This document shows, in pieces, positions 14,601 through 59,161 of a DNA stretch of 64,000 nt. The DNA comes from Candidatus Brockarchaeota archaeon (GTDB lineage: Archaea; Thermoproteota; EX4484-205; JAAOZP01). Positions within the stretch are counted from its first letter, which is position 1, and the number at the start of each line of letters is the position of its first letter. The DNA is taken from contig JAFNIQ010000002.1 in assembly GCA_017601395.1 (NCBI GenBank), forward strand, positions 6,990 through 70,989. Reading direction: 5' to 3'. The notes beneath the pieces are model-generated. The model searched no databases. It saw nothing but the letters and a program-made list of their open reading frames with translations, and was not told the DNA's origin. The translations under genes and the position numbers were made by a program.

Positions 14601-14866
14601 TGGCTTGTCTCTTTAGACTGGACTTTCCCGGTGTCCCATAGGTCACCAATATCTTTCTCAAGGTTTAACCTTGTGCTTGAAACAATAATCTGATAGGCTG
14701 TTTGAAACTGTCCTCTTTCAGATGACTCGACGATCCAGCTTAACCTGGGTTTTAAAACGTCTATTCCCAGAGGGTTGACCCTGTACTCGCAACGCAGCTT
14801 TCTAACCTTTAAACCAGGCTTTCTCCCTTCTTCAACAGGTTTAGACAAGTCTTCGGTCAACTTCAA
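11690..14866 (-). CDS. alpha-L-rhamnosidase (GH78)
   Basis: 1058 aa. The N-terminal RCEYRVNPLGID...PRLSWIV...QTAYQI and the ARWIG.. region are hallmark GH78 (Bac_rhamnosid) sequences. Confidence 0.9.
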   Translation of the reverse strand: MKLTEDLSKPVEEGRKPGLKVRKLRCEYRVNPLGIDVLKPRLSWIVESSERGQFQTAYQIIVSSTRLNLEKDIGDLWDTGKVQSKETSQITYAGKTLSSRMECWWKVRVWDKRGRPSEWSEPAYWTMGLLEPNDWKARWIGYDEYAEWEEPNFKGCKWIWFKEGDPAKEAPVADRYFRRTISLPSDRKMLRGIFLITADDQFVLFVNGKEAGRSNGKPYAWQRPQMIKITDLLHAGLNVFAIKATNTGGSAGLLGKVIIEFEDGKPFILVTDASWKSSETSEEGWEKPDFDDSGWMSAFELGDFKTKPWGILATRPPYVRPPPFFRKRFTIEKKVKRALIYVSALGSCELRLNGKRVTEDYFIPGWPDYRKRAYYRTYDVTSLLNHGENAIGVILHSEWYSGYQGGWGRLNRFGRGPRLLLQLEIEYYDGESQIVVSDESWKVTYGPILEADNYMGETYDARREIRGWDEPWFKDDNWGNVTVDNVGLQLTAHPGEPVRKTMELQAKSVREISPGVFVFDFGQNMVGVIRLRVRNAEPGTRIMLRYAEVLNPDGTLHTANLRGARATDIYICKGGSEEFFEPRFTYHGFRYVEVTGYPGKPPIDAVTGIVIHTDIQIVGDFRCSNPLLNRLVQNILWSLRGNYFEVPTDCPQRDERQGWTGDAQIFARTAAYLADISAFMTKWLIDLNDSQREDGAYPDVAPATGAGFGTPCWGDAGIIIPYVVWRTYGDTRVIRLYYEKMARYINYLVENSKGFLRPEIGYGDWVPAGPETPKDVIATAYFAYVVKLMVEMAREIGKTDDAKRFEELFNNIRTAFHKAYVQPDGQIKGETQTCYALALDLKLLPREMEETALKHLVKDIEERGWHLSTGFVGTRHLMQALTKFGKTDLAYRLLLQETYPSWLYTVKLGATTIWERWNSMTEEGIHEPGMNSFNHYAFGSVGEWLFSTVAGIDVEDTGFKSIIIKPKPSRELGRVHASYESIRGTVSVDWWFSGDAFHLQLVIPANTSALVYVPTSEPERVMESGKPAEKSECVKLIGIREGCVVYRVLSGSYSFTVA

Positions 14867-33629: not shown

Positions 33630-36629
33630 TTGGTAAGTAGGCGTGTAGGAAGTAATTTATTGCTCGTCGTTCTAATTCTCATCGCATTCTGTTTTTCAGC
33701 TATTTCCTCAGTAAGATGGATGCCTACTATAATGGTTTCTGGAACGCGATATGGTGAAATAGAATTAAATATTGGTTGTGGCAGCCCAAGTATATCATAC
33801 TTCGGGAACTACCTATTTGTTGAGCTTGATGGTTTTCATTATTTTGGTGAACCTGGCAATCCGGAGCTTCCGACTAAGTTTTTAGACGTGTTGCTTCCAC
33901 CCGATGTGAATACAACCACCATAGATATATGTGTTTTACGGGATGAAAGCTATGAGATGAATGTGACTGCAGAAGTAATTCCGGCGCCACCTTTGGCATG
34001 CGGTGAAGCAGTGGATTGGGGTATCGGCAAGGATATACAGAATGGTAAGAATCTTCTCGTATACGGGAGAGGAGAATATTATCCGGATAACGCTGTAGAG
34101 GTTTACCAGGTTTCTAATAGAGGAATATATGTGTTTGCAAGAATCCGGTATAATCCCATCCAGTATAACCCGTTAAAAGGGAGGCTTAAGATACATGAGA
34201 ATATATCTTTCAAGATCACTTATCAGCTTACAGGTAGACGAGCAGCCATTGTTAAAAACACGATAGTTGAAAAAATCGTTGAGAAACAATTTGTAAACTG
34301 GAATAGCGCTAAAGAATGGTATTTGCCGTCTTTTCCGGCATTGAACTCCCAGTACGATTATGTTATAGTCACTACGAAGGCTATAAAAACAGGAAGCATG
34401 GAGCTAAACAATTATGTGAATCATCTTCAGAACACTAGAGGCTTCAAGGTGAGGGTGATCACAGAGGATGATTACGGGCCGGAAACTGGGCAGCAGAGAG
34501 CAGTAAACATAAGAAACTGGTTGAAGAACAATTATCTAACCCTGGGGGTCAAGTATGTTCTTCTAATAGGCAATCCTGATCCAGATGACCCGAGTAATCC
34601 GTCTGACTCTTACGGTGATGTCCCAATGATGATGTGCTGGCCGAGGGTTCAGGGTTATGATACTGTGCCCACGGACTATTTCTATGCTGACCTTACTGGA
34701 AACTGGAATACCGATGGGGACAGTTATTATGGGGAATATGGTCAAGATACTGGCGTGGACTTCACTCCGGAGGTATATGTAGGAAGAATACCTGTTTACA
34801 ATGATGATTACGCTACGCTAGATGAGGTTCTCCGAAAGACGATGAGCTACGTGTTCTCAGGAACAGGATGGAGAAACAGGATTATGCTTCCAGTAGCTAT
34901 AAGCAACTATGCGAATGAAGATAACCAGGGCTGGCAAAGAACAGATGGTTTAGACTTGCCTAAATATGTGGTTGAAAACATTCTGCCTGGGGGCTGGACG
35001 CACTATGTTCTTTACGAGAGAGCTGGACGGGACCCGGTGCCTGAGGCTGCGCCATATTACTCAGCACCATTAACTAAGGCTAACTTGGTCAACGAGTGGA
35101 AGAAGGGTTACGGAGTGGTTTTCTGGTTCGGCCATGGGAGCAGCCAAGGAGCCTTCAGAAAGTATTGGAGTTTTGACGATGGTGACGGGGTGCCGGAGTC
35201 CGGCGAGATGAGTTGGCAATTATTCTTCGGCTCTTCTGATACTCCTGGATTGAACGGCTCCGCACCCTCATTCATATTCCAATGCTCCTGTAACAATGGT
35301 TATCCGGAGGATGAAAATAACCTTGGCTATGCTCTTCTTAAGAATGGTGCGGTAGCAACTGTTTCAGCCTCGAGGGTAAGCTGGTATATAGTTGGCTACT
35401 GGTGGCCCCGTATGCTTGCGGATAATGTTGAAATAGGGTACCGCTACGTTGAGAAACTGTTAAAGGATAAGCTTAGTGCAGGCGTAGCTCTCTACGAGGC
35501 TAAGGGGATGCTGCCTCATGATAGCAGTGTTTGGTGGATGAACCTGTTCTGCTTCAACCTTTACGGTGACCCAAGTCTCTCACTGTTCAACGCTTTATCT
35601 AAGATTACTGTCGACTCGGACCCACGGGGCTCAGGCCTCGTGAAGGTTGATGGACAACTTATCACGACACCTGTAGTCTTCACATGGGAGGAGGGCTCAA
35701 CCCACCTGCTGGAAGCAGTCTCACCCATGGACTTAGAGAATGGGACGAGGTATGTCTGGTATGGCTGGAGCGACGGAGGAGCCCAAAGCCACAATTACAC
35801 TGTTACAAGTTACAACACTACTGTAAAAGCCTTCTTCAAGAAACAGTATAACGTCACTTTCACGGTTAAGCCACTGAGCTGCGGAACCACATCGCCTTCC
35901 GGCTCGGACTGGTACAACGAGGGCTCAACAATACAAATATCCGCCATCGCTGACCCTGACTACGTCTTCAAAAATTGGTTTTCAAACACGTCGAAGATAA
36001 CTATAGCTGACCCCTATTTGCCGAACACTAATGCAACTATAGGCGGTCCGGGAACTGTGACGGCCAACTTCACTGTTACGGTTACAAGCTTAACGTTGAA
36101 AGTGGTGGACAGCATGGTTCAAACAGGAGTAGTAAATCTAACAGTCAAAATAATATCGCTTAACAACATTACTGGTGCAGGGTATGCGGTAGACGCCACT
36201 AATCCTCTAACTCTAATACCTTCTCCAGCAGACGGCTCCTGGGATTCAAGCATAGAGTACATCAGAATAAGCTTCAACGGTTCAACCTATGCCGATGGAT
36301 TCCACACGATCTACGTTAGGGCTAACGATACGGAGAATACGAGTAACTGGCTCACTTTACGTTTCCACGTCAGGAGTCTGGTTAAGAGGTACAACCTTAT
36401 CGCCCTAATCCTCAAACAATCTTCGGGATACTCGGCTGAAACGCTTGGGAAAGCGATAGGGCCGGAAGCAACGTTAATAGCAAGATGGGATATTGGAACG
36501 CAAAAGTTTAAAGGCTATTCGCCCGGCATCAGCAGCCCGGCGGACGACTTTCCAGTAGAGCAGGGCTTCGGATACTTCGTGTACTTGAATTCTCCGCGCA
36601 AATTCGTGGAGCTGGAGGTAGAGGGATGA
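33630..36629 (+). CDS. secreted peptidase C25 (gingipain-like, clan CD) family protein with a propeptide and C-terminal Ig-like/beta-sandwich domains
   Basis: Signal peptide. C25-propeptide-like segment GFHYFGEPGNPELPTKFLDVLLPPD. Catalytic His in VVFWFGHGSSQGAF and catalytic Cys in SFIFQCSCNNGY (clan CD His-Gly ... Cys dyad spacing). The C-terminal NLYGDP motif is shared with the 55109..59161 protein. 999 aa. Confidence 0.65.
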   Translation: MVSRRVGSNLLLVVLILIAFCFSAISSVRWMPTIMVSGTRYGEIELNIGCGSPSISYFGNYLFVELDGFHYFGEPGNPELPTKFLDVLLPPDVNTTTIDICVLRDESYEMNVTAEVIPAPPLACGEAVDWGIGKDIQNGKNLLVYGRGEYYPDNAVEVYQVSNRGIYVFARIRYNPIQYNPLKGRLKIHENISFKITYQLTGRRAAIVKNTIVEKIVEKQFVNWNSAKEWYLPSFPALNSQYDYVIVTTKAIKTGSMELNNYVNHLQNTRGFKVRVITEDDYGPETGQQRAVNIRNWLKNNYLTLGVKYVLLIGNPDPDDPSNPSDSYGDVPMMMCWPRVQGYDTVPTDYFYADLTGNWNTDGDSYYGEYGQDTGVDFTPEVYVGRIPVYNDDYATLDEVLRKTMSYVFSGTGWRNRIMLPVAISNYANEDNQGWQRTDGLDLPKYVVENILPGGWTHYVLYERAGRDPVPEAAPYYSAPLTKANLVNEWKKGYGVVFWFGHGSSQGAFRKYWSFDDGDGVPESGEMSWQLFFGSSDTPGLNGSAPSFIFQCSCNNGYPEDENNLGYALLKNGAVATVSASRVSWYIVGYWWPRMLADNVEIGYRYVEKLLKDKLSAGVALYEAKGMLPHDSSVWWMNLFCFNLYGDPSLSLFNALSKITVDSDPRGSGLVKVDGQLITTPVVFTWEEGSTHLLEAVSPMDLENGTRYVWYGWSDGGAQSHNYTVTSYNTTVKAFFKKQYNVTFTVKPLSCGTTSPSGSDWYNEGSTIQISAIADPDYVFKNWFSNTSKITIADPYLPNTNATIGGPGTVTANFTVTVTSLTLKVVDSMVQTGVVNLTVKIISLNNITGAGYAVDATNPLTLIPSPADGSWDSSIEYIRISFNGSTYADGFHTIYVRANDTENTSNWLTLRFHVRSLVKRYNLIALILKQSSGYSAETLGKAIGPEATLIARWDIGTQKFKGYSPGISSPADDFPVEQGFGYFVYLNSPRKFVELEVEG

Positions 36630-38515
36630 TGAAGAAGGCTTTCTACTTAGCCTGCATATTCATTCTATGTGGGATAATCTTAACCGTCATAAATTTCGTT
36701 AGGGCGCAGGTACCTGTAAACGTGTGGGGATATGTCTATATGCCTGATGGGACTCTTGCAGTCGGCGCTTCTGTTTCAATTTCTGGTGGAGGAGACTCTA
36801 AATCAACAACTACTGGAACCGACGGCAAATATGGGCCAGTTACGCTAACTGTTTCTTCTGTTCCCGTGAATATAGTCGTAAGTGCATCGAAAGACAGTTA
36901 TTCAGGTAGTGCATCTGCCATAGGCGAGGGTACGGTACAGATAGACATACATCTTTCAGCAGCGCCTCCACCCCCGCCTCCTCCGCCTTCCCCGCCACCA
37001 TCGAGAAAGCTGGTTAGTATCCAGCTTAGCGTCCCGAGCGAGGCTGCTGTTAACGCCAGTGTCAGGATAATTGGGAAGGTTAATCCAAGTGTTTCCCAAT
37101 TATACTTGAAGACTAGGGATCCGAAAAATATTCTGAATGAATATCAGTTGTCGGTTGCCTTAAACGGAAGCTTCTCGTTCGACTTTACGCCTACGATTTT
37201 AGGCGTCTATAGGATTTCAGCGTTTTTTCCTGGCGACTTAGAGTATGAGCCTGCTTCAACACCCGAGTACTCTCTTCGGGTGAAATCAAGGTCGATTCTT
37301 AATCTGACTTTAAGCCCGACCGTGGTGGTAGCAGGATTCGAGAACATTAGTATAAGCGGGAGGCTTTATCCTCCTAGTGTTCAAAACGTTTTACTCTACT
37401 ATTCCTTAGACAATGCTTCATGGATTCTCTTCGCCGAGTTGAATGCTACGACGGGGGTTTTATCAATAGTTTGGAAGCCGAGGGTTTTCGGAGACGTCTT
37501 CATAAAGGCAGAGTGGACTGGGAACGATACTTATACCGGCTCGGTTGCATACGGGAGGTTTCAAACAGTGTTGCCAAGCGTATGCATGTTGCGAGCATGG
37601 GTTGAGAACTCTCCAATCAGGATTGGGGAGGAAGTACGGGTCAACGGGGTTCTTATTGGTGTTGCGCATCCTGAAACCGCCGAGTTAACTATGCGTATTT
37701 ATAATGATGGGAGGGAGGTTGAAACCTTTAGGCTGAATCCTTCTCCAGACGGGGTTTTCACCGTAAGCTATAAGCCAGGGTCGCCCGGGGTCTATGTTCT
37801 GCTTCTCGAGGCTAGTGGAGTAAGATTGTTGAGGGCTAGCAATGTTACGACAGTCGTTGTCTTAGGAGAGGTGAAGCTTAGGGCGGTTAACTCCACAGGC
37901 GGACTACTGGGTGAAGCAGTAGTGGAGTTGAAGCATAATAGTGAAATTGCAAGCTCAGGAGCAGGTGAATTGAAAATCGTCCTGAATCTCGGGGATTACG
38001 AGGTCATCGTAAAGAGTGATGGCGCTGAAGTATTCAAGGGTTATCTCAGTCTAACGAATAAAGGTGTCTCCCTGATTTCCCTTAAACAGAGTGCAGAGTT
38101 TCCGCTTCCCATAACAAGCAGGCCTTTGATAATTGAATTGAGGACTGAAACCTATTTCCTGAACGTTCACGTGGTCAATGAATTCGGCGAGCCGATGGGA
38201 AACGTTGAAGTCAAGATAGCTCCATCTCCGCATCCCGTGACAAGTAGGCCTTTAAACGAATCATCGGTTTTTCAAACTACCGGGAGAACAGATGCTGAGG
38301 GCCGCATTGTTTTTTCAAACATTCCTGCTGGAAACTATACTGTCAGCACTTCTGCTGAAAGCAAGAATGTTAATCTTATTCGAAACGAATCTGTAACGCT
38401 AAAAGGATCGGGGGTTAACTTGAGGATAGTTCTTATTCTTGTCGCTGTTGCTTTAATAGTTTTATGCTTCACTACTTTCTACCTTGCTAGAAAGAAGCCT
38501 GTCATGGAGAAGTAG
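36626..38515 (+). CDS. cell-surface protein with carboxypeptidase-regulatory-like beta-sandwich repeats, a poly-Pro linker and a C-terminal TM anchor
   Basis: It overlaps the upstream stop by 4 nt. It has a signal peptide, TGTDGKYGPV (a CarboxypepD_reg-like motif), PPPPPPPPSPPPS, and a C-terminal hydrophobic helix plus RKKP. Confidence 0.6.
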   Translation: MMKKAFYLACIFILCGIILTVINFVRAQVPVNVWGYVYMPDGTLAVGASVSISGGGDSKSTTTGTDGKYGPVTLTVSSVPVNIVVSASKDSYSGSASAIGEGTVQIDIHLSAAPPPPPPPPSPPPSRKLVSIQLSVPSEAAVNASVRIIGKVNPSVSQLYLKTRDPKNILNEYQLSVALNGSFSFDFTPTILGVYRISAFFPGDLEYEPASTPEYSLRVKSRSILNLTLSPTVVVAGFENISISGRLYPPSVQNVLLYYSLDNASWILFAELNATTGVLSIVWKPRVFGDVFIKAEWTGNDTYTGSVAYGRFQTVLPSVCMLRAWVENSPIRIGEEVRVNGVLIGVAHPETAELTMRIYNDGREVETFRLNPSPDGVFTVSYKPGSPGVYVLLLEASGVRLLRASNVTTVVVLGEVKLRAVNSTGGLLGEAVVELKHNSEIASSGAGELKIVLNLGDYEVIVKSDGAEVFKGYLSLTNKGVSLISLKQSAEFPLPITSRPLIIELRTETYFLNVHVVNEFGEPMGNVEVKIAPSPHPVTSRPLNESSVFQTTGRTDAEGRIVFSNIPAGNYTVSTSAESKNVNLIRNESVTLKGSGVNLRIVLILVAVALIVLCFTTFYLARKKPVMEK

Positions 38516-50934: not shown

Positions 50935-51294
50935 TTATAATTCTTTGATATACGTTCTAATTCTGACTTCTTGGTCTCTCCATATTTTCATAAGATTAGC
51001 GAAATAGTCATAAAGCTCGTCTATATCTCTACACCATACTACCTTGTGGGTCTTTATGATTTCAGCCTTCATATAGAGTGGAAGTTCTTCAAACAACCAG
51101 ATGTCGTACTTCTGGTTATTAACCCTGGAGAACACGTCTAGCAGTAATCCTGCTTTATCGTTAACCTCTGGTGCAACTATGCAAACGTCGACATCTCTTA
51201 TCATCGATTCTCCCTTCGCCTTAGAGCCGAATAGGAGTATTGCTAAAACACCCTTAATCTCGGATAACTGGTATAGCTCTATGTGCTCGTCCAT
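50935..51294 (-). CDS. minimal nucleotidyltransferase (MntA-like antitoxin)
   Basis: LLFGSKAKGES...RDVDVCIV, which is the GS-x9-13-DxD polymerase-beta superfamily NTase motif. Confidence 0.8.
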   Translation of the reverse strand: MDEHIELYQLSEIKGVLAILLFGSKAKGESMIRDVDVCIVAPEVNDKAGLLLDVFSRVNNQKYDIWLFEELPLYMKAEIIKTHKVVWCRDIDELYDYFANLMKIWRDQEVRIRTYIKEL

Positions 51295-51680
51295 GACTCT
51301 AAATCCTTCCTTATTTTAGCCAATTTGGGAAGGAGGGTTTTTATCGATTCCAGTGCTAATTTATCTGATATTTCGTTATAGTTATGCACAAGTCTATTTC
51401 TCAATCCGTTTGCACTTCTCAGAATACTGGAGGTATCTTTATCGATTAATCCTTTTTCTTCAATTAACAGAATGTTAGTATAATCGTCTTTTGGGGGTAT
51501 TTTCAATTCGACGAGTTTCATAGATAGCATGTCAAAGAATGCTTCAACTATCTCCTGAAAAGCCTTGTAGATCGCTAATCGAGTTCTCTCTTCATCTTGG
51601 GAGGGTAACCAAGATTCTATATTGGCCATCCTCCTATCTATATGAGCAAGCTTGTCCATGTATCTTATCTTTCTCTCCAC
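51279..51680 (-). CDS. HEPN domain toxin (HepT/DUF86-like)
   Basis: RNRLVHNY, the Rx4-6H HEPN motif. It overlaps the MNT gene by 16 nt and is AT-rich. Confidence 0.8.
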   Translation of the reverse strand: MERKIRYMDKLAHIDRRMANIESWLPSQDEERTRLAIYKAFQEIVEAFFDMLSMKLVELKIPPKDDYTNILLIEEKGLIDKDTSSILRSANGLRNRLVHNYNEISDKLALESIKTLLPKLAKIRKDLESWTST

Positions 51681-51748: not shown

Positions 51749-52624
51749 TTAAGACGTTAGGGAAATATTATGACTCGTAATACTTGCGGATTTTTCATGA
51801 ACTTTTAACGTGGCTCTTCTTAACGCCCAGCAGCTGGCTACAACCCCGATAGCCATGGAAGATGGGTGAATAGAAGCATACTCGATATGGATATCCAGGG
51901 CGGTTACACCGCCGAAGCCGTGAACACCTATATCAAGCCTGTTAATCTTTCTTAAAAGATCCTCCTCCATTCCTGCAATAACACTGTTCTCATGCCTCTT
52001 TCCAAGTGGCCTTAAGTAAACGGCTCTTTTAGCAAGGTCCAATGCTATATCCGAAGATGGGCCAATACCGACTCCAATTACAATCGGAGGGCATGGCTTG
52101 GCTCCGGCTTGTGCAACGCTCTCCAACACCGTTTGAAAGATCTCCTTTCTCCCGGCCGTAGCGGGTAAAACCCTTAGGCTTGAAACGGCCTCCGAGCCCC
52201 CTCCCTTAGCGACCACAGTTATCTCTAAGCTTTCCGTACCGGGCTCCCAAAGGATCCACGGGATAAATCTCCCCGTGTTGTCTCCGGAATTCCTCCCTGA
52301 GGGGAAATCTATCGCGTTCGGCCTCAAAGGTATTTTACCACTTGCCTCCACAACAGCCCCAACAATGATTCTCCGCAGCTCATCCTCCCTCCATTCTCCT
52401 CTCTTAACATAGAAGGTTAACGTGCCTGTATCTTGGCATATGGGTTTACCCTCTTTTTCGGCGGTTTCAACATTCTCCAGGAGGGCACCCAGTATTTTCC
52501 TAGGAACCTCCCTTTCTTCACACTCATAGGCTTCTTTCAAACGGTTCTTAACATCTACGGGGAGGGATGTTTCGCAGAGCCTTATTGCTTCAACAACATA
52601 TTCCTTAAGCTTAGCGGGATGCAT
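51749..52624 (-). CDS. fumarate hydratase class I, alpha (N-terminal catalytic) subunit; TtdA-like
   Basis: ICQDTGT motif (Fe-S hydro-lyase alpha), and a length of 291 aa. Confidence 0.85.
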
Positions 52625-52628
52625 TTTT

Positions 52629-53270
52629 CTAGTCCTCCAGGCTTTTCAAAACTCGCGAAAGGTTTTCGCCGACCCTTCTCCTAAGGTCCTCGTACAGATC
52701 GTTTCCAAAAGCATCTATTACGATTGTTATCGGCCCAAGCTCCTTAACCTCGAGATGCCACATTGCCTCAGGGGCTCCAAGCTCTTCAAGCCAGTAGACT
52801 CCAATAATACGTTTAACGCTTTTAGCAATCAGCGCTGCGGCTCCCCCGGGAAGAACCCCGTAGAAGGCTTTGAATTCTCGGCATGCCTCCATGGTTCTAC
52901 TCCCCATGCCACCTTTTCCAATAATGCCTGTAATCCCTGTCTCCCTGATAAACTCATATTCGTTATTCTCCATTCTGAAACTCGTGGTGGGGCCGATTGA
53001 AACAACCTCCCACTCGGAATCCTTCCTCCTGACTATTGGACCTGCGTGAAACTCGATGAGGCCCCGAAGGGAAAAGGGCAGCCTATTCCTGTTCGCCAAT
53101 ATTAATTTTTGAGTCCTATCCCTACTCGTAAAAACTTCCCCGCTAATATACACAATGTCTCCAGCCCTGAGTTTAGTAACCTCTTCCTTTTCGAGTGGGG
53201 TTTCAAGTTTATATTCTCTAGCCAACGGGAATATCTTCACACACCTCGATTTAACCTTTTGAGCCTGCAT
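52629..53270 (-). CDS. fumarate hydratase class I, beta subunit (C-terminal domain)
   Basis: Fe-S hydro-lyase beta-type swivel domain (GEVFTSRD..., GIIGKGGMG), encoded immediately upstream of the alpha subunit. Confidence 0.85.
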   Translation of the reverse strand: MQAQKVKSRCVKIFPLAREYKLETPLEKEEVTKLRAGDIVYISGEVFTSRDRTQKLILANRNRLPFSLRGLIEFHAGPIVRRKDSEWEVVSIGPTTSFRMENNEYEFIRETGITGIIGKGGMGSRTMEACREFKAFYGVLPGGAAALIAKSVKRIIGVYWLEELGAPEAMWHLEVKELGPITIVIDAFGNDLYEDLRRRVGENLSRVLKSLED

Positions 53271-53308: not shown

Positions 53309-55096
53309 TTACGTGGAAGCAGAAGGCGGTGGGGATGCGAGGGGAAGCTTCTTGCTCCTTCTTCTATACAATGAGAGCGTAGCAATCACAATAATCATTA
53401 CAGACATAATCCCTACCATCATATTAGTGTAGTCCTCGGAATACATGGCCCGCATCTCCAGCCTCGGCTCATATCCTGTGAAGACAAGACTGACAGAGCT
53501 ATCCGTAGAGTTCAGAAAACCAGTCCACTGTTTAAATACATATCTGGCGCCCAATAGGCCTAGCAGCCCAGGCATGTTCACGGAGGATGGTGCAATCAGA
53601 GCCGCCTCATCACCCTCCCTATATCTGCCTGAGCCGGATATCTCAACCGCGATGTTGGAGGAAACGTTTAGATTGTAACTCATCACAACCCTGATTAGTT
53701 TTACGGTGGAATTTCTCGCTTCCTCGTTGTCGGTAACCGTCAATGTGACCAAATAATCTCCCAGCCCATGATAGGAATGCTTCACATTAACACCTGAACC
53801 CTCCCCACCGTCTCCAAACTCCCATTTGTATAAGGATATTCTTCCATCAGGGTCGTTGGACTCTGAGGCATCAAATATCACATCTTCGCCCAAGCCTACC
53901 TTACCAGGCGTGCAGCTAAATTTCGCTATTGGCAAATAGTTCGTGCTGACCATGACCGCCATGAGTGGCGTCGTCTGGCTCTCGTACGAAACATATCCTA
54001 TGGCATAATATATGGCACCTTTCTCAGCCGAGGAAGTGTTCCAAGCTGAGGTGAACCTAAAAGAGCCTCCGGGCGCAAGGGATGAAAAATTAAGGTGGCT
54101 GCTCCAAACAGTATTGTTTCCCTTCTGCATCATGAAGATGCATCTCCCCGAGAGGGTCATCGAACCCTCGTTCAGGATGTCGAGCGAGATCTCCACCTGA
54201 TCCCCTATCTTAAAGTGTTTCGGTTCAACGCTAAAGCTTGTCACATTAATCAGAGGCCTGCCGAGCCTGAACCCGCAGGTCTTCCTGTCAAGCCAGTTTC
54301 CTGAGGTATCGTTCAACATAACCTCCACGTAATAGTCGCCTATCGGGAAGCCCTTGCTGTTCCAGATCATTGTGAATGATGCTTGTCCCACTACATTATG
54401 AAGCGTTCTTAAAGGTAAGCCATCAACAACCTTGTCTAAACCATAACACTTTATCAGAGTACTTGCAATGATATCTCTGGCATCGCCTGAGTTGTTAAGC
54501 AAAACGTTAATTGTAACCTCCTCTTGAGGATCATAGACTGGCTTTTCCGTATCAGCATTGAGTATTGAAACTGTCGAAAATATGTAGGTTACATCAAACT
54601 CGTAGTGCTTATAATATCTGACTTCAGTTGTTTCAGAATCATAGTAAAAAGGATATATAATTATAGTGAGCGTGGTAGTGCCATCGGGATTCATCGATAT
54701 GGACCAATGGTAATCTTCATTCGGATACCAGTCTTTGTCTTCGTTTGAAAATGGTCTATTAGAAGATGAACGGTTTTGCATCGTCACGATTGGCAATTTC
54801 AATCCACTATCTGTTACAAGTCCACTACGCTTTCTTTCGACTACCGTCTGAACCCGGTATCCTCTAGGATAATCAACTGAAACAGAGTAGAAGGGAATCC
54901 TTGGCTTACCTTCTACAAGCAGAATATGTCCTCCGGGGATTCTAACGTAATCGAAATCAGCGATCTTACTTACTTCGTAATCAGGTATCAAAATTTCCAG
55001 CATTGAGGGTGGTTCAGTACTGTTAACTTGAAGCACATTAAAGATAGATAGGAAAAGAATAATACTGAAGAGCAGCCACCAAAATCTTTTAATCAT
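53309..55096 (-). CDS. secreted or membrane-anchored protein with a C25-propeptide-like N-domain and a PKD domain
   Basis: Signal peptide. GGHILLVEGKPRIPFYSVSVDYPRGY aligns with the propeptide segment of the 33630 peptidase. PKD domain DPDGRISLYKWEFGDGGEGSGVNVKHSYHGLGDYLVTLTVTDNEEA. C-terminal TM anchor plus RRRSKK. Confidence 0.6.
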   Translation of the reverse strand: MIKRFWWLLFSIILFLSIFNVLQVNSTEPPSMLEILIPDYEVSKIADFDYVRIPGGHILLVEGKPRIPFYSVSVDYPRGYRVQTVVERKRSGLVTDSGLKLPIVTMQNRSSSNRPFSNEDKDWYPNEDYHWSISMNPDGTTTLTIIIYPFYYDSETTEVRYYKHYEFDVTYIFSTVSILNADTEKPVYDPQEEVTINVLLNNSGDARDIIASTLIKCYGLDKVVDGLPLRTLHNVVGQASFTMIWNSKGFPIGDYYVEVMLNDTSGNWLDRKTCGFRLGRPLINVTSFSVEPKHFKIGDQVEISLDILNEGSMTLSGRCIFMMQKGNNTVWSSHLNFSSLAPGGSFRFTSAWNTSSAEKGAIYYAIGYVSYESQTTPLMAVMVSTNYLPIAKFSCTPGKVGLGEDVIFDASESNDPDGRISLYKWEFGDGGEGSGVNVKHSYHGLGDYLVTLTVTDNEEARNSTVKLIRVVMSYNLNVSSNIAVEISGSGRYREGDEAALIAPSSVNMPGLLGLLGARYVFKQWTGFLNSTDSSVSLVFTGYEPRLEMRAMYSEDYTNMMVGIMSVMIIVIATLSLYRRRSKKLPLASPPPSAST

Positions 55097-55108
55097 TATA
55101 ACGTCACC

Positions 55109-58100
55109 TCAATCTCCAAACTTCGGGTCTCCGTATAGGTTGTAGTGATAGGCGTATACCAACCATGCGGTATTCACACGGATCAAGTGTCTTTTCGACA
55201 GGGCAAAAGCTTTTCCAATCGTGCGATAAGTCCATTCTGCACCATAAAGCTGATAGTGGAACTCGTCAGACTCGTCGCCAACGCTGATAGTTGCACCCAT
55301 GTATATTGCTGCACCATTCTTCAGAAAGGCTTCAGATATACTAATGTCACCAATATCCGTAGTCTCGTAGTAGCCTGTTGAGCAGGCAGCAGCAGAAACC
55401 ACAGGCGCACTGTTGCCAAAGGTAAGGGGGTGTCCTGGAAGGTCAGTATACAGCTCTGTACTGCCGCACCAACCTATGAACGCGTCAAGACAACACGCCC
55501 AGCTTCCCGGGCCACCGTGGCCAGCAAATACGATGATATCCTTTCCCTGTGCCGCTTCCTTGATTTGATACCCTCTTTCCGATAAGGCCCTACAATCACT
55601 TTCATAAATATTGTAGGGAAGTAAAAGTAGTGCTCCTCCTGAGATTCGAATACCGAAACGTACTGCTTCAATTATTTCAGCATCCTCTTTACTTATTAGT
55701 GTATGTAGAGTGGCCAGATCCATGGGAGGATGATTCTTGATGCAAGGAGCGCCGTCTAACGTATGACCTGGTGCTTCCAGGCAATTGTAAACTCCCACTA
55801 AACGACTTAGACTACCATAATTCGTTACCAGTCGACGGAGCTCTGATGGCGGTTCTGGAGTAGGAGTATCGGGATCCAGATCCCAATACGTGCCTAATAT
55901 GTAAAGTGCCTCACGGAGTAGGTTAACTTCAGTATCATAGTACTCGGTATGCCGTAGCGATACGCTAGCCCCCTGAAAAGTATGAAGAAGATCTGCTAAG
56001 ACATGACCATTCCGCACCCAAACCTCCTCCCAGGGCCCAGCAGGCCCAGTAGTAACCAGGGCATCAGAACGGTCAAATTCCCTACGGCCGATTGCTACGT
56101 CAATACTGGTTATGATAGGGGTTTTTAAATTTCTAGCAGTATCGCCCACGATCCTGCCCACCATGATATCTGGAAAATGATCGTTATAGCAAGTATCTGA
56201 ATACGGATTGTCGCTGAGCGGAATACTTACATTAAGAATGACCCTGTTGAAAGAGGGAACGATCTCCGTTTCTCCCACGATTAGAACATAGGCATCCCTG
56301 TCTCTCTCAGGATTCGGGTCTCTGAAAACGGGAGAAAGCCTACTGGCCCATGCTCCTGAAGGCGAGATGAATTTCTTGATCTCGTGGGCTGTTAATTCTC
56401 CTCGCAAGTATCCCAGGACCCCGCTCTTAAGCCTAGCCAGTTCCGCCATCTCGACCAAGAGAGAATTCACCCCGTCTTCATCATCTGGGTTGCGGCTGAA
56501 CAATCTTGAAGGATGCGTAATAATTATGTAGTCTGCACTTCTGAGAACCGTCGACAAATCTCCAGGGTGATATCTCAACTGGAAGCTATGTCCGTAATTC
56601 GTGCCGCCGCATGAGAAGCTCACAGATGTATCGAGCCAGCCGAATATGTAGCAATCGTCCGGAATGGTTGGAGCAAACAGTATGGGCACAGCAAAATACT
56701 GGAGTGTTGCAACACCTCCAGGCGGTAACGTGGCTTCTCCCGGTGGTTTGAAAATAACGGTGCTAGTCCAAAACGACGGTACGAACCTTACGCTCATGAA
56801 TGCTGTGTGAGGAATCACTTGAAACCCGCAAACATCATCGCGGAGAGTAAGATTGTACAAAGTCTCCGTTCCTATATTCCTTACGAACAGTGTTACAAGG
56901 TATGTCGTCTGGTAAATATCGTGCCTTACCACATTCCTCGTGACGTTGACGCTGATAATCCTATATTCGAGAGGAGGCGGTGCCCATTCGAAGCGCAGGA
57001 TGCTGGCTCTTATGCTGTCGCGACCATAGTTGCCCAAGTCGTCCCATGCCTTGACCTCTATCACGCACTCAGAGCCAGGTTCAAGCCCCGTCGTGTTCCA
57101 GAGGTGAGTGAACGAAAGGCTACTTGTCCGAGGTTCCGTGACAACCTCCCTCCTGAGGAAATCGTAGCGAAACGGAGAATACTCCCACCTCCTAACTAAC
57201 GCGCCGTCTATGTAGAGCTCAGCTTTCTGAATGTGTCCTGCGGGTGTGGCATGATATTCCCTGTCCTGAATTAGAGCCTCTATTCGAACAAGTCCGTGTA
57301 CCGGCCCCCCATCGCTGGGGCTAACTATCCGCACATCCGGTGGATTCGTGTCTGGAAGCGGGTTGGCGATCGTACCGTTTTTAACGTCAAAAGCCCTGTT
57401 TCCAGCTGTATCAAAAGCTGTCGCGTCGAAACTGTGGACCCCGTTGGGGTAGAGGGTTGTGTTGCAAACCCAGAAGTAGGGCGGGGAGAAATCTATAAAC
57501 TTTATCGCTTTATCTATAGAGAACATCACGCCTCCCACACCAACGTTATCGCTGGCGTGGGCCAAGATGTTTACGACGCCGACAAGTCTCTCCGGCAGGA
57601 GCAAGGTTACTGAGGGCTTCTCCTCATCCGGCGGGGACGCCGTTTCGAAAACCATGGTCTTGCTTACGGCAGAGCTCCCACAAATATCGTTCGACTTTAC
57701 GTAGAACCTGTAGGTTGTCCTCGGCTTTAATCCCGTAATCCTTAACGCATGGTCTTTCACGAGGTTCGGGTCGTAAACGGTTTTCTCCTCTCCGGTGGAA
57801 CGGTCGCTGTAAACAACCATGCTGTCGCTATTCTTATTAGTAACCCATTTTATGGTCGCCGAGTCCTGAGTAGTGCTCACGGCACTTGGCCCAGATGTGA
57901 TTAATATAGGAATGGGATAAGAGATGCAGGTCTTCTCGAGACAGTTGTTTTTCTCATCTGACTCCTTAATTTGGTTGAAGTTATCCACACAGGTCTTTAC
58001 TGTAATGTTGTGACACTCCGGCCACTTATAGTCCTTAAACCAGGATTCTAAGTTCTCTCCTGGCTTCAGGTCGACTCCAACAGGGTCGTGGGCAACCTCC

Positions 58101-59161
58101 TTACCATCCACGTAGAGCGTTGTACTATGGTTTCCCTTCGCCAATTCGCTTCCAATATTCTTTATTGCATATCTTATCACGCTGTTGTTCCTGTCACAAC
58201 TTATCTCTGTGATTATCAGGTCCGGCAGGTTTTCCTTAAGCCACTTCTCCTCGAGACAGTTGTTTTCTTCACTCGACTCTTCGATGTCCTGCTCGCAATC
58301 GGCACAGACATTGACGATGTGCTCACCAGGCGTCGGCTGCCAAGCGTAGTTGAATACGCCCTCAGTCTCCTCACCGGGTTTAAGCACCTGCGTAATCGCG
58401 TGTTTCGCCACCTGCTTCCCGTCTATTGAAAGACAATTTCGGAAGCTCTTGGCAGGCATACCCGGCGGTGTGGTGGCAGCATCACCAATATTCTTTGCCT
58501 TGTAATGGACTAGGCCGTTGCTCTCCCATACGTCGGTTATAACGAGGTCTGGCAGAGGTTTAGTCTCTATTCTTGCCTCCGCCCAGACAGCCCAGTCCCT
58601 GTTTGAGGTCTGCCCGGCACCTACGTACAGGATGAAGTACCCCGTTTTACCGGCTAAGTAACCTAGGTCTTTAACTATTGGGTCAAGCTTTCCGTCATAG
58701 GTTGCTACGTGGCTTAAAACCGTATATGTATTCTGCTGCAGGTCTAGAAACCGCACTTCGAATATAACACCGTCTGTCCCAGTGGCTCCAGAGAGGAACC
58801 CCACTCTAGCTGTGAGTTGTACATTATTCGGCACAGTCTGTTGAGGATATCTGCCCATTATGTACCCGTTGCTAACCCACTGGGGGTGTGTTTCCAGAAC
58901 CCTACTCCACGTAGCTCCGTCTTCAAGAAGCGCGTTATTCACGTACTGTGCAAAGCCCCTGCTGTCTGAGGGGTCTCCGGGAAACGGTAAAGCCCCAGCT
59001 CCACTGCTCCATTGAGCCTCAGAAGCGTGATCAATGAAGTCATAGGCCGCGGATCCTGCCTGAACGCTGAGAATAATGTTGCTGATGAAGCTTGCTGAGG
59101 ACATTAGGATTAGGCATGTTGAGAAGTAGAATAGGCTACTTTTTAAAAAACTGATTTTCAA
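55109..59161 (-). CDS. giant secreted multidomain protein with CARDB repeats, an FN3 domain, Ig-like domains and a C-terminal peptidase C25-like (clan CD) domain
   Basis: Signal peptide. CARDB-like LPDLVITDVWESNGLVHYKAKNIGDAAT repeats. FN3 (TIKWVTNKNSDSMVVY...TGLKPRTTYRFYV). The C-terminal DIIVFAGHGGPGSW (His) and PVVSAAACSTGYYE (Ala-Cys) give the clan CD dyad, and it ends with NLYGDP. 1350 aa. Confidence 0.65.
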   Translation of the reverse strand: MKISFLKSSLFYFSTCLILMSSASFISNIILSVQAGSAAYDFIDHASEAQWSSGAGALPFPGDPSDSRGFAQYVNNALLEDGATWSRVLETHPQWVSNGYIMGRYPQQTVPNNVQLTARVGFLSGATGTDGVIFEVRFLDLQQNTYTVLSHVATYDGKLDPIVKDLGYLAGKTGYFILYVGAGQTSNRDWAVWAEARIETKPLPDLVITDVWESNGLVHYKAKNIGDAATTPPGMPAKSFRNCLSIDGKQVAKHAITQVLKPGEETEGVFNYAWQPTPGEHIVNVCADCEQDIEESSEENNCLEEKWLKENLPDLIITEISCDRNNSVIRYAIKNIGSELAKGNHSTTLYVDGKEVAHDPVGVDLKPGENLESWFKDYKWPECHNITVKTCVDNFNQIKESDEKNNCLEKTCISYPIPILITSGPSAVSTTQDSATIKWVTNKNSDSMVVYSDRSTGEEKTVYDPNLVKDHALRITGLKPRTTYRFYVKSNDICGSSAVSKTMVFETASPPDEEKPSVTLLLPERLVGVVNILAHASDNVGVGGVMFSIDKAIKFIDFSPPYFWVCNTTLYPNGVHSFDATAFDTAGNRAFDVKNGTIANPLPDTNPPDVRIVSPSDGGPVHGLVRIEALIQDREYHATPAGHIQKAELYIDGALVRRWEYSPFRYDFLRREVVTEPRTSSLSFTHLWNTTGLEPGSECVIEVKAWDDLGNYGRDSIRASILRFEWAPPPLEYRIISVNVTRNVVRHDIYQTTYLVTLFVRNIGTETLYNLTLRDDVCGFQVIPHTAFMSVRFVPSFWTSTVIFKPPGEATLPPGGVATLQYFAVPILFAPTIPDDCYIFGWLDTSVSFSCGGTNYGHSFQLRYHPGDLSTVLRSADYIIITHPSRLFSRNPDDEDGVNSLLVEMAELARLKSGVLGYLRGELTAHEIKKFISPSGAWASRLSPVFRDPNPERDRDAYVLIVGETEIVPSFNRVILNVSIPLSDNPYSDTCYNDHFPDIMVGRIVGDTARNLKTPIITSIDVAIGRREFDRSDALVTTGPAGPWEEVWVRNGHVLADLLHTFQGASVSLRHTEYYDTEVNLLREALYILGTYWDLDPDTPTPEPPSELRRLVTNYGSLSRLVGVYNCLEAPGHTLDGAPCIKNHPPMDLATLHTLISKEDAEIIEAVRFGIRISGGALLLLPYNIYESDCRALSERGYQIKEAAQGKDIIVFAGHGGPGSWACCLDAFIGWCGSTELYTDLPGHPLTFGNSAPVVSAAACSTGYYETTDIGDISISEAFLKNGAAIYMGATISVGDESDEFHYQLYGAEWTYRTIGKAFALSKRHLIRVNTAWLVYAYHYNLYGDPKFGD

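Follow-up and report, generated by a model that had tools for sequence, protein, structure and literature searches.

Gingipain-family peptidases are repeatedly invoked as extracellular protein degraders of the abundant uncultured archaea of sediments and hot springs. In a 64,000-nucleotide stretch of a Candidatus Brockarchaeota contig (hereafter, the window), two adjacent genes of the minus strand, named here A and B, raise a question about how such an enzyme is controlled and retained. A encodes a C25 peptidase, and a segment resembling a gingipain propeptide had been suggested to lie not on A but on B. Is the first domain of B truly related to gingipain prodomains and, if so, what may it do for a peptidase that is encoded by another gene?

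The two genes and their products

Both open reading frames are present as given in the preliminary description (Table 1), whose portrayal of A as a CARDB/FN3/Ig giant with a C-terminal C25 domain agrees with the Pfam families and with the motifs that it had quoted, FAGHGGPGSW (aa 1212-1221) and SAAACSTGYYE (aa 1256-1266). Protein A is an exact match to GenBank MBO3840919.1, a 'hypothetical protein' of a Candidatus Brockarchaeota MAG. Its signal peptide, a feature that is also present in the L003 ortholog, would be cleaved after ILSVQA.

Table 1. Features of genes A and B, with positions in the window
Feature	Positions	Strand	Residues (aa)	Description and basis
Gene A	55109..59161	(-)		1350-aa secreted multidomain C25 peptidase; TTG start; stop TGA 55109-55111; ORF list and Pfam
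A, predicted signal peptide	59054..59161	(-)	1 to ~36	...ILSVQA/GS; hydrophobic N-terminus, by inspection
A, non-catalytic ectodomains	56576..59053	(-)		Pfam; no Propeptide_C25 among them
A, N-terminal beta domain			37-205	
A, CARDB, two			207-410	Pfam E=2.7e-24, two stretches
A, FN3-like domain			426-507	Pfam fn3/Pur_ac_phosph_N
A, Big_7, two			516-700	Pfam, two stretches
A, pre-catalytic Ig domain			725-862	CARDB/DUF7507-like; weak DUF7507 match in L003 ortholog
A, Peptidase_C25 catalytic domain	55112..56560	(-)	868-1350	Pfam, AF2 and Foldseek
A, putative catalytic His codon	55517..55519	(-)	1215	FAGHGG; near-invariant column, 51-sequence alignment A4
A, putative catalytic Cys codon	55382..55384	(-)	1260	AAACSTG; near-invariant column, 51-sequence alignment A4
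A, C25 C-terminal signature	55112..55141	(-)	1341-1350	NLYGDPKFGD; last residues of A
A-B spacer	55097..55108	(-)		12 nt, GGTGACGTTATA; Shine-Dalgarno-like GGTGA at 55104-55108
Gene B	53309..55096	(-)		595-aa type-I membrane protein, proposed partner of A; ORF list, orthologs, conserved adjacency
B, predicted signal peptide	55016..55096	(-)	1-27	Alignment A1
B, prodomain-like domain (PDL)	54563..55015	(-)	28-178	Gingipain prodomain fold; AF2 and Foldseek
B, PDL variable loop	54731..54784	(-)	105-122	TMQNRSSSNRPFSNEDKD; low confidence, pLDDT ~51
B, two CARDB-like Ig domains	53939..54562	(-)	179-386	Weak Pfam CARDB E=0.0015, aa 288-361
B, PKD domain	53702..53932	(-)	389-465	Pfam PKD_4 E=1.7e-20, 73.3 bits, cut-off 27
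B, C-terminal beta domain	53429..53689	(-)	470-556	Possibly InlB-B-repeat-like
B, transmembrane helix and basic stop-transfer	53348..53422	(-)	559-577; 578-583	RRRSKK; by inspection

Protein A belongs to the C25 peptidase family. The Peptidase_C25 model (PF01364), a check that had been proposed for A, matches the whole protein with E=3.5e-20 (73 bits, cut-off 23; best stretch aa 1201-1347) and the isolated C-terminal segment with E=4.5e-21 (75.9 bits). When an AlphaFold2 (AF2) model of the catalytic domain was compared with the PDB by Foldseek, the top matches were Kgp (4RBM, 6I9A) and RgpB (1CVR, 4IEF chains B and D), with E values from 1.5e-10 to 4.6e-10; phmmer gave a weak alignment of aa 951-1023 with 1CVR. 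The putative dyad has the order of clan CD, His (AGHGG) and then Cys (AACSTG), both nearly invariant in 51 homologues. The domain also holds an insertion of ~140 aa (aa 1065-1205) that varies by lineage, and it ends with NLYGDPKFGD, the point where a linker begins in fused homologues.

A does not follow the canonical zymogen layout, in which the prodomain stands directly before the catalytic domain. In its place there is a CARDB/DUF7507-like Ig domain, which is conserved in the L005 partner peptidase, and Propeptide_C25 was not found by Pfam in A or in the partner peptidases of three other loci. Protein A is also devoid of a C-terminal anchor.

For B, the PKD domain and transmembrane anchor that had been described are both present. 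The PKD assignment, judged by the PF18911/PF00801 HMM threshold, holds for aa 389-465, which in the PDB match collagenase PKD domains with E values down to 8e-20. The CARDB-like Ig domains are conserved in the alignment consensus of split and fused homologues. In contrast, the C-terminal beta domain is missing in the P0034-P0056 variants (alignment A1); it has only weak BLASTP similarity (E ~2-6) to the Flg_new_2 region of the protein at 33630. Among split-type homologues, 54 of 77 Met-initiated proteins have an N-terminal hydrophobic stretch of 12 residues or more, and 38 of 83 have a C-terminal TM-like segment.

The first domain of B

The AF2 model of B aa 28-178 has a pLDDT of 90.9 and shows the gingipain prodomain fold. 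In a Foldseek search of the PDB, the only significant matches of this prodomain-like domain (PDL) were the prodomains of RgpB (4IEF chains A, C, E and G) and Kgp (5MUN chains A and B), with E values from 1.4e-7 to 8.5e-7, probability 1.00 and TM scores of 0.65-0.73. The next match had E=0.23, so that six orders of magnitude separate the prodomains from all other folds, and the IgSF domains of 1CVR and 4RBM were absent from the matches of the PDL alone. The same fold match was reproduced inside a chimeric model (see below).

At the sequence level the resemblance is faint. The Pfam model Propeptide_C25 (PF08126, cut-off 22 bits), whose failure on B had been named beforehand as a result that would count against the proposal, gave no match to the window copy of B even at E<=10. 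It is found below threshold in 11 of 29 B orthologs (best E=6.4e-4) and reaches 19.1 bits in a fused homologue (P0142). Likewise, an HMM search of PDB sequences with the PDL profile found no prodomain chain. Profile-profile comparison with canonical propeptides by hhalign gave E=5.2e-4 and a probability of 31%, which became E=3.3e-5 and 72%, co-linear over 129 columns, with a wider profile of 189 PDL sequences; within the window, the best non-self match of the PDL profile is the canonical propeptide of ORF C. Nevertheless, because the AlphaFold model has specifically the prodomain fold, the resemblance is considered real despite the failed HMM test. The segment originally singled out as propeptide-like, GGHILLVEGKPRIPFYSVSVDYPRGY (B aa 55-80), thus keeps this assignment by model and profile-profile comparison but not by Pfam HMM.

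Whether this domain inhibits A is a separate matter. The loop at aa 105-122 corresponds in topology to the stretch in which gingipains carry their inhibitory loop, and hhalign aligns it with Kgp ...PSMSKSDDPEKVPF.... In 107 PDL loops, however, the length ranges from 11 to 45 aa and there is no conserved Lys or Arg, the frequency of these residues being <=27% at any position; the Lys of the window loop is missing from its closest orthologs. Such a hypervariable loop, in which no basic residue is conserved, does not support a P1-in-S1 block of the gingipain type, and leaves inhibition by the PDL plausible at most.

Fused relatives, conserved pairing and a model of the pair

An exhaustive profile search for the PDL yielded 776 proteins (clusters at 50% identity), of which 188 were analysed. 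In 99 of these the PDL is internal and, in 93 of the 99, it is C-terminal to a catalytic domain whose NLYGDPK[FY]G end lies <=70 aa upstream. The order in these fused proteins is catalytic domain, flexible linker, PDL and Ig domains, with anchors also following; at the junctions inspected, the linker is rich in Ala, Ser and Pro and roughly 20-45 aa long. The boundary between A and B falls inside this linker, and the signal peptide of B sits where the linker is in the fused homologues (alignment A1). In addition, all nine genomic contexts, which span archaea and a WOR-3 bacterium, have a C25 gene immediately upstream of B; in the eight contexts other than the window, the A-B spacer ranges from -4 to +43 nt. 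A fusion/fission relationship and a conserved adjacency are therefore evident and, as judged from these fused homologues, the position of the boundary and the adjacency, A and B appear to be two halves of one unit, their genes being the two sides of a break in the post-catalytic linker. The idea that the PDL is a relocated N-terminal propeptide was rejected, as in the fused relatives it comes after the catalytic domain and is separated from it by a linker.

Two groups of homologues limit what the PDL and the anchor can be for. A sister lineage (P0024/27/29; L003, L004) retains the A-B pair but has deleted the PDL, which is consequently not universally required for folding or pairing. The P0034-P0056 variants have no membrane anchor, so tethering would not be the sole role of B.

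A chimera of A(865-1350) and B(1-178), modelled by AF2 on a 51-sequence alignment of fused homologues, reached a pTM of 0.86 and a pLDDT of 84.6. Such a pTM would be hard to reach unless the 151-aa PDL were confidently placed against the catalytic core, and the model thus points to physical docking. The best explanation, with a probability of about 0.6, is that A and B are two subunits of one split gingipain-family (C25) cell-surface cysteine peptidase. The two adjacent genes would be co-transcribed; A would be exported with its predicted catalytic domain (His1215/Cys1260) at the extreme C-terminus, and B separately, through its own signal peptide, to be kept in the membrane by its C-terminal helix. 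Outside the cell, the PDL would bind the catalytic domain of A non-covalently, recreating the single-chain arrangement of the fused relatives. A first consequence would be the retention, at the archaeal cell surface, of a peptidase that has no anchor of its own; docking on the catalytic domain of A and tethering it to the membrane would be the most likely role of B. Less certainly, the PDL may stabilise A, or keep it latent until the PDL or its exposed loop is cleaved.

Other explanations share part of this evidence. The PDL might be a permanent structural subunit, a post-catalytic stabiliser or spacer that joins A and B, leaves the active site free at all times and stays in place, a role comparable to that of the IgSF domain that follows the gingipain catalytic domain. 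The loop without a conserved P1-like residue fits such a role, as do the Ig domains and anchors that follow the PDL in fused homologues, where its removal would detach the enzyme. Against it, the fold match is specific to prodomains and does not extend to the IgSF domains of 1CVR or 4RBM, the long flexible linkers of fused junctions look like cleavable tethers, and known members of the prodomain fold act as inhibitors (PMC4138498); we regard this reading as rather unlikely. It is more doubtful still that the PDL is a dedicated foldase, needed in trans once for the folding of exported A and then dispensable. Prodomains of other secreted proteases, such as subtilase propeptides, do assist folding (PMC6993865), which makes the analogy conceivable, and both proteins would arrive together through their close coupling in an operon, but the PDL has disappeared from a lineage whose A is intact and the literature examined gives no evidence of gingipain prodomains as obligate foldases.

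Two further readings remain. Databases label B simply a 'PKD domain-containing protein', and no propeptide in it is recognised by Pfam, as would be expected of a generic PKD/CARDB surface adhesin that neighbours A independently and resembles a prodomain by chance. This is strongly disfavoured and very improbable, given the immediate adjacency in all nine contexts across domains of life, the 93 proteins with both parts in one chain and the wide gap between prodomains and other folds. Finally, the existence of fused versions, with the break exactly between domains, could suggest that one long gene was broken by recent pseudogenisation or by a MAG error of the nonsense or frameshift type. The same split, however, is seen in many independent assemblies at 27-100% identity, the identical 1350-aa protein A is present in three independent sources, a clear B signal peptide replaces the linker in most contexts inspected, and the window has GGTGA between stop and start. 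The conserved signal peptide and stop and start codons refute an artefact for practical purposes, leaving it a negligible chance.

In sum, an in-trans prodomain or anchor is the best reading because A has no propeptide in cis, B has the prodomain fold and the pair is conserved. This part of the preliminary proposal stands; the inhibitory role that it also envisaged is weakened by the hypervariable loop and by the lineage without the domain.

Comparison with other peptidases and significance

The window encodes another C25 peptidase (33630-36629; Peptidase_C25 E=2e-41), with the canonical architecture and its own N-terminal Propeptide_C25 in cis (E=8.9e-6, above the gathering score). Like A, it is secreted, has the NLYGDP C-terminal signature and precedes a gene for a membrane-anchored, Ig-rich protein; unlike A, its catalytic domain is not C-terminal, and a PDL profile search within the window found no prodomain-like domain in its downstream partner. 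BLASTP aligns the two peptidases over ~150 aa (E=0.003, 26% identity), so that, on sequence, they are only distantly related within the family, and they differ in architecture. NLYGDP, from which paralogy had been argued, is family-wide (93 of 99 fused homologues) and does not add to this.

The gingipains RgpB and Kgp of Porphyromonas gingivalis (MEROPS C25; 4IEF, 5MUN, 1CVR, 4RBM) share the catalytic fold and His/Cys dyad of A, and their prodomains the fold of the PDL. The Porphyromonas prodomain binds laterally to the catalytic domain. It is N-terminal, in cis and removed at maturation, whereas the PDL comes behind the catalytic domain, in the same chain or as part of the product of the adjacent downstream gene. 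Ig/PKD domains and a membrane anchor come after the PDL, its loop has no conserved Arg or Lys, a T9SS C-terminal domain is absent, and sequence identity is only ~15-18%. As separate polypeptides, recombinant Rgp prodomains are trans inhibitors with nanomolar Ki (PMC4138498).

The stand-alone inhibitors of MEROPS I9 (yeast PBI2, POIA1, Plasmodium SUB1-ProM, Toxoplasma MIC5) are, like B, separate gene products that mimic a protease prodomain fold. They differ in acting within the subtilase (serine) clan, in fold, and in being small and soluble, whereas the PDL opens a multidomain protein with a membrane anchor. To our knowledge, the I9 inhibitors have no fused post-catalytic form. The gene for SUB1-ProM adjoins protease genes (PMC6993865). 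Legumain (C13) resembles the A/B unit in belonging to clan CD and in having a regulatory or stabilising domain after the catalytic domain, but it is of a different family, and its LSAM is helical, death-domain-like and unrelated to the beta-sandwich gingipain prodomain. We know of no split-gene form of legumain. Its C-terminal prodomain (AP and LSAM) can stay non-covalently bound after cleavage (PMC4357240).

Like A, the predicted gingipain-like peptidases of sediment archaea are C25 homologues in uncultured archaea; those of Bathyarchaeota and Thermoprofundales have been interpreted as extracellular protein-degrading enzymes (PMC6752024, PMC6461988), and extracellular peptidases of an unusual kind have been reported in Brockarchaeota (PMC8065059). 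The archaeal C25 literature examined gives family membership only and describes no post-catalytic or trans prodomain-like domain or two-gene arrangement. Relative to it, an architecture in which the prodomain fold follows the catalytic domain or belongs to an adjacent membrane protein, with several hundred relatives, appears to be new. Tentatively, and at somewhat less than even odds, this could be the first natural case in clan CD where a gingipain-type prodomain has come to follow the catalytic domain and, among many archaea and certain bacteria, to belong to a separate membrane-anchored protein, keeping the protease latent and docking it to the surface; the family so defined would be large and so far unannotated (776 clusters at 50% identity).

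For annotation, these results matter for B-type and A-type proteins, currently labelled only 'PKD domain-containing' and 'hypothetical', respectively, and the PDL extends the C25 repertoire by a domain family that lacks annotation. Natural pairs of enzyme and trans-acting prodomain could also inform the design of gingipain inhibitors. If the proposed mechanism is true, activation of A would be coupled to its release from, or rearrangement on, its anchor, and PDL docking would serve organisms without an outer membrane to retain a protease. The A/B locus thus offers a concrete, testable model for the surface retention and latency of archaeal exoproteases.

A predicted C25 peptidase and its downstream partner

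Genes A and B lie in tandem on the minus strand, with coordinates and sizes that agree with those of the preliminary description. The TGA of A and the ATG of B are separated by a spacer of 12 nt, GGTGACGTTATA, which starts with a Shine-Dalgarno-like GGTGA. The product of A is identical to GenBank MBO3840919.1, labelled 'hypothetical protein' in a Candidatus Brockarchaeota MAG; in general, database labels for A- and B-type proteins are 'hypothetical' or 'PKD domain-containing'. The flanking genes, which encode FEN-1, a PfkB kinase, class I fumarate hydratase alpha and beta, and a HepT/MNT pair, bear no relation to one another or to A and B. The genes for the HepT-like RNase and the Polbeta/MNT nucleotidyltransferase overlap as a toxin-antitoxin pair just past the split fumarate hydratase genes, and this neighbourhood is syntenic in L003 and L004, two other genomic contexts of the gene pair. 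Elsewhere, the window encodes a GH78 alpha-L-rhamnosidase whose domain set is complete (Bac_rhamnosid6H, E=4e-128), in keeping with reports that Brockarchaeota degrade plant polysaccharides.

Coordinates of the features in the window and in the other contexts of the gene pair
Feature	Position (strand)	Detail
Gene A	55109-59161 (-)	1350 aa; TTG start
Insertion in the C25 domain of A	55547-55969 (-)	A aa 1065-1205
Gene B	53309-55096 (-)	595 aa; ATG start
B, signal peptide		aa 1-27
B, prodomain-like domain (PDL)		aa 28-178; 150-aa domain without Pfam recognition
B, two CARDB-like domains		after the PDL
B, PKD domain		PKD_4, E=1.7e-20
B, further beta domain	53429-53689 (-)	aa 470-556
B, hydrophobic helix		aa 559-577, then RRRSKK
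Second two-gene unit	33630-38515 (+)	C25 peptidase and 629-aa protein
33630 peptidase	33630-36629 (+)	999 aa
HepT/MNT pair	50935-51680 (-)
Fumarate hydratase genes	51749-53270
GH78 alpha-L-rhamnosidase	11690-14866 (-)	1058 aa
L001/L002	5050-9996 (L001)	archaeal
L003	651-5359	sister lineage
L004	1-3806	archaeal; sister lineage
L005/L006		archaeal
L007	1-5606	bacterial, WOR-3 bacterium
L008		metagenomic contig
L009	1318-5997	archaeal
L010	2533-4417	metagenomic contig
L011	1-1536	metagenomic contig

In protein A, a signal peptide is followed by about 830 aa of Ig-like domains, in which Pfam recognizes CARDB (E=2.7e-24), an FN3-like domain and Big_7, and then by a catalytic domain, the protein ending in NLYGDPKFGD. 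The C-terminal part matches Peptidase_C25 (E=3.5e-20; 73 bits, the cut-off being 23), which bears out the earlier view of a giant C25 protein whose catalytic domain is C-terminal, and the motifs quoted in its favour are found in A. Furthermore, the alignment columns of His1215 and Cys1260 are almost invariant among 51 sequences, and in a model of a chimera joining A residues 865-1350 to B residues 1-178 (mean pLDDT 84.6), the catalytic part matches Kgp (4RBM, 6I9A) and RgpB (1CVR; 4IEF chains B and D) in the PDB with E~1e-10 (Foldseek). Thus, from family match, conserved residues and model, A is a predicted C25 peptidase, with an atypical architecture. Pfam scans at E≤10 found no Propeptide_C25 in A, sub-segments included, and at three other loci the orthologous peptidase upstream likewise has none by Pfam. 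NCBIfam models match neither A nor B.

The C25 domain of A is broken by an insertion of about 140 aa, largely helical and of lower model confidence, between the N-terminal portion of the catalytic domain and the segment with His1215 and Cys1260. The Pfam C25 match is also split by an insertion in the L001/L002 and L009 orthologs, where it contains FG-GAP repeats, and this site appears to be a hotspot of module insertion.

Full-length orthologs of B are common in Thermoproteota and Nitrososphaerota MAGs. Its last extracellular domain (aa 470-556) faintly resembles the Flg_new_2/InlB B-repeat region of the 33630 protein, the other C25 peptidase of the window (BLASTP E about 2-6). This domain is missing from anchor-less variants of B and so travels with the transmembrane helix.

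Identity of the first domain of protein B

The preliminary description had placed a propeptide-like segment on the downstream PKD protein and named a Propeptide_C25 HMM match as a test of it. There is no such match for the copy of B in the window: direct Pfam scans of B or of its first 200 residues returned no Propeptide_C25 at E≤10. Likewise, no prodomain chain came up among PDB sequences with phmmer or with profile hmmsearch, whose matches were noise only (malectin and aprataxin at E>0.3). The segment itself is nevertheless upheld by its predicted fold. An AlphaFold model of the PDL built with 29 orthologs (pLDDT 90.9) has as its sole significant Foldseek matches in the PDB the prodomain chains of RgpB (4IEF A/C/E/G) and Kgp (5MUN A/B), with E values of 1.4e-7 to 8.5e-7, a probability of 1.00 and TM scores of 0.65-0.73; the first match beyond these chains has E=0.23. 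A gingipain IgSF domain was rejected as an identity for this region, as the search gave no IgSF match.

Profile comparisons point the same way. With hhalign, the PDL aligns to the canonical propeptide of the 33630 protein at E=5.2e-4, and a 189-sequence PDL profile aligns to a canonical profile of two sequences only, the 33630 propeptide and a Kgp fragment, at E=3.3e-5 (probability 72%, 129 columns co-linear). A homologue search from the 33630 propeptide for this canonical profile returned nothing; this propeptide matches the Kgp prodomain at E=1.3e-4. Sub-threshold Propeptide_C25 matches occur in 11 of the 29 B orthologs, where it is by far the commonest family. In the six frames of the window, the top non-self match of the PDL HMM is the 33630 propeptide, at only E=0.04-0.18, and by BLASTP of B against the 33630 protein, the segment quoted earlier pairs with that propeptide without significance (E=0.71). 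The fold evidence for prodomain identity is strong, and the sequence signals are weaker but concordant. It is concluded that the first domain of B is a putative divergent homologue of the gingipain prodomain.

Fused homologues and the gene boundary

When 1.84 billion representative proteins were searched exhaustively with a profile, 776 with a PDL were recovered (505 at E≤1e-10), many of them of 1400-2500 aa with the domain deep inside. Among 188 proteins analysed, the PDL is N-terminal, as in B, in 83 and internal in 99. In five of seven proteins examined with Pfam, it starts 20-37 aa past the end of Peptidase_C25; in P0125, for instance, residues 925-1199 form the C25 domain and 1224-1375 the PDL. 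At the fused junctions inspected, NLYGDPK[FY]G is followed by an Ala/Ser/Pro-rich linker, and after the PDL come the same two CARDB-like domains as in B. Protein A ends exactly at the motif that precedes this linker, while B resumes after its signal peptide with the same ...L.V.VPDY... start as the fused forms. Thus, the two genes correspond to the two sides of a linker break and, read from these alignments, the boundary is a break in the post-catalytic linker, with a signal peptide in the linker's place. The in-trans prodomain proposed earlier is accordingly supported as an arrangement, but not as a displaced N-terminal propeptide, since the PDL is natively post-catalytic: the motif lies at most 70 aa upstream of it in 93 of the 99 internal cases.

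An assembly artefact as the source of the split was considered and rejected because the arrangement recurs in eight further contexts, where the C25 gene ends 2-7 residues past the motif and a B-type gene follows after spacers of -4 to +43 nt. These comprise archaeal contexts (L001/L002, L004, L005/L006, L009), one from a WOR-3 bacterium (L007) and three metagenomic contigs (L008, L010, L011). In a neighbour-joining tree built on 155 columns of the PDL, at least 19 switches between split and fused forms were counted, a hint of more than one change of architecture, although this crude tree is too weak to polarise fusion versus fission.

Some of these contexts have further features. The neighbours of the L011 pair (P0274 and P0036) encode FlgD_ig domains and Por_Secre_tail domains, the latter for T9SS C-terminal sorting; the contig is probably bacterial, and these neighbours suggest a Bacteroidota/FCB-type host, so the split architecture is not confined to archaea. 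In L007 and L008, which are bacterial or bacteria-like, the pairs stand in tandem copies. For the second B of L007, the gene call yields a truncated PDL and leaves a gap of 400 nt upstream uncalled; either a frameshift or a mis-called start could account for this. In L010, Cas1 is encoded some 1.2 kb downstream from the pair, with one gene between, a proximity that is probably coincidental.

Other propeptide systems and a possible role

In canonical gingipains and in the 33630 protein, unlike in B, the prodomain is N-terminal and in cis. The 33630 locus had been described as paralogous; the relation is in fact one of distant family membership (BLASTP E=0.003), NLYGDP being a family-wide signature. 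The 33630 peptidase, with a cis Propeptide_C25 and an InlB-B-repeat domain, gives a sub-threshold match to the T9SS sortase PorU model of NCBIfam (41 bits against a cut-off of 420) that probably reflects the shared C25 fold only. Its gene overlaps by 4 nt one whose product combines a signal peptide and a poly-Pro linker with Big_3_5/CarboxypepD_reg/MG4-like Ig domains and ends in a transmembrane helix and a basic tail. Thus, a secreted C25 peptidase with a downstream membrane-anchored Ig protein occurs twice in the window, once without a PDL.

Among other proteases, legumain of clan CD likewise carries a regulatory domain at its C-terminus, but the helical fold of that domain is unrelated (PMC4357240). 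For subtilases, stand-alone propeptide-like inhibitors (MEROPS I9) are encoded by separate genes, and the SUB1-ProM gene adjoins protease genes (PMC6993865). No report of a separately encoded propeptide-like inhibitor for C25 was found in the literature examined, and work on archaeal 'gingipains' and Brockarchaeota peptidases gives family matches without architecture.

In Porphyromonas, the N-terminal prodomain of about 200 aa binds the catalytic domain laterally and its inhibitory loop places Arg126 into S1; added in trans, recombinant prodomains of Rgp inhibit with nanomolar Ki, while that of Kgp is a poor trans inhibitor (PMC4138498). Inhibition or latency through the PDL is plausible by this homology, but the sequence gives it no support. 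The loop at the inhibitory position (B aa 105-122) is modelled with a pLDDT of about 51 and ranges from 11 to 45 aa among homologues; no conserved basic residue that could mimic P1 was found in it, Lys/Arg reaching at most 27% at any position, and the Lys of the window's B is absent from its closest orthologs. Any single-role model is also limited by a sister lineage (P0024/27/29; L003, L004) that keeps A and B with the PDL deleted, and by a group of B variants without an anchor (P0034-P0056). In P0024, a B of 474 aa, the signal peptide runs into the first CARDB-like domain with the PDL cleanly missing; the catalytic domain of this lineage's A is shorter and lacks the insertion of about 140 aa.

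Binding is proposed, since the homologous prodomain is known to bind the catalytic domain and the chimera, modelled from an alignment of naturally paired fused sequences without the L005 A+B concatenation row, has a pTM of 0.86. As the PDL makes up 23% of that chain and the linker is disordered, we infer that the model places it confidently. Outside the cell, the PDL of B would bind the catalytic domain of A and, because A lacks a C-terminal anchor and a transmembrane helix is present in B, the first consequence would be retention of the peptidase at the cell surface, which would be of use to an archaeon that lacks an outer membrane.
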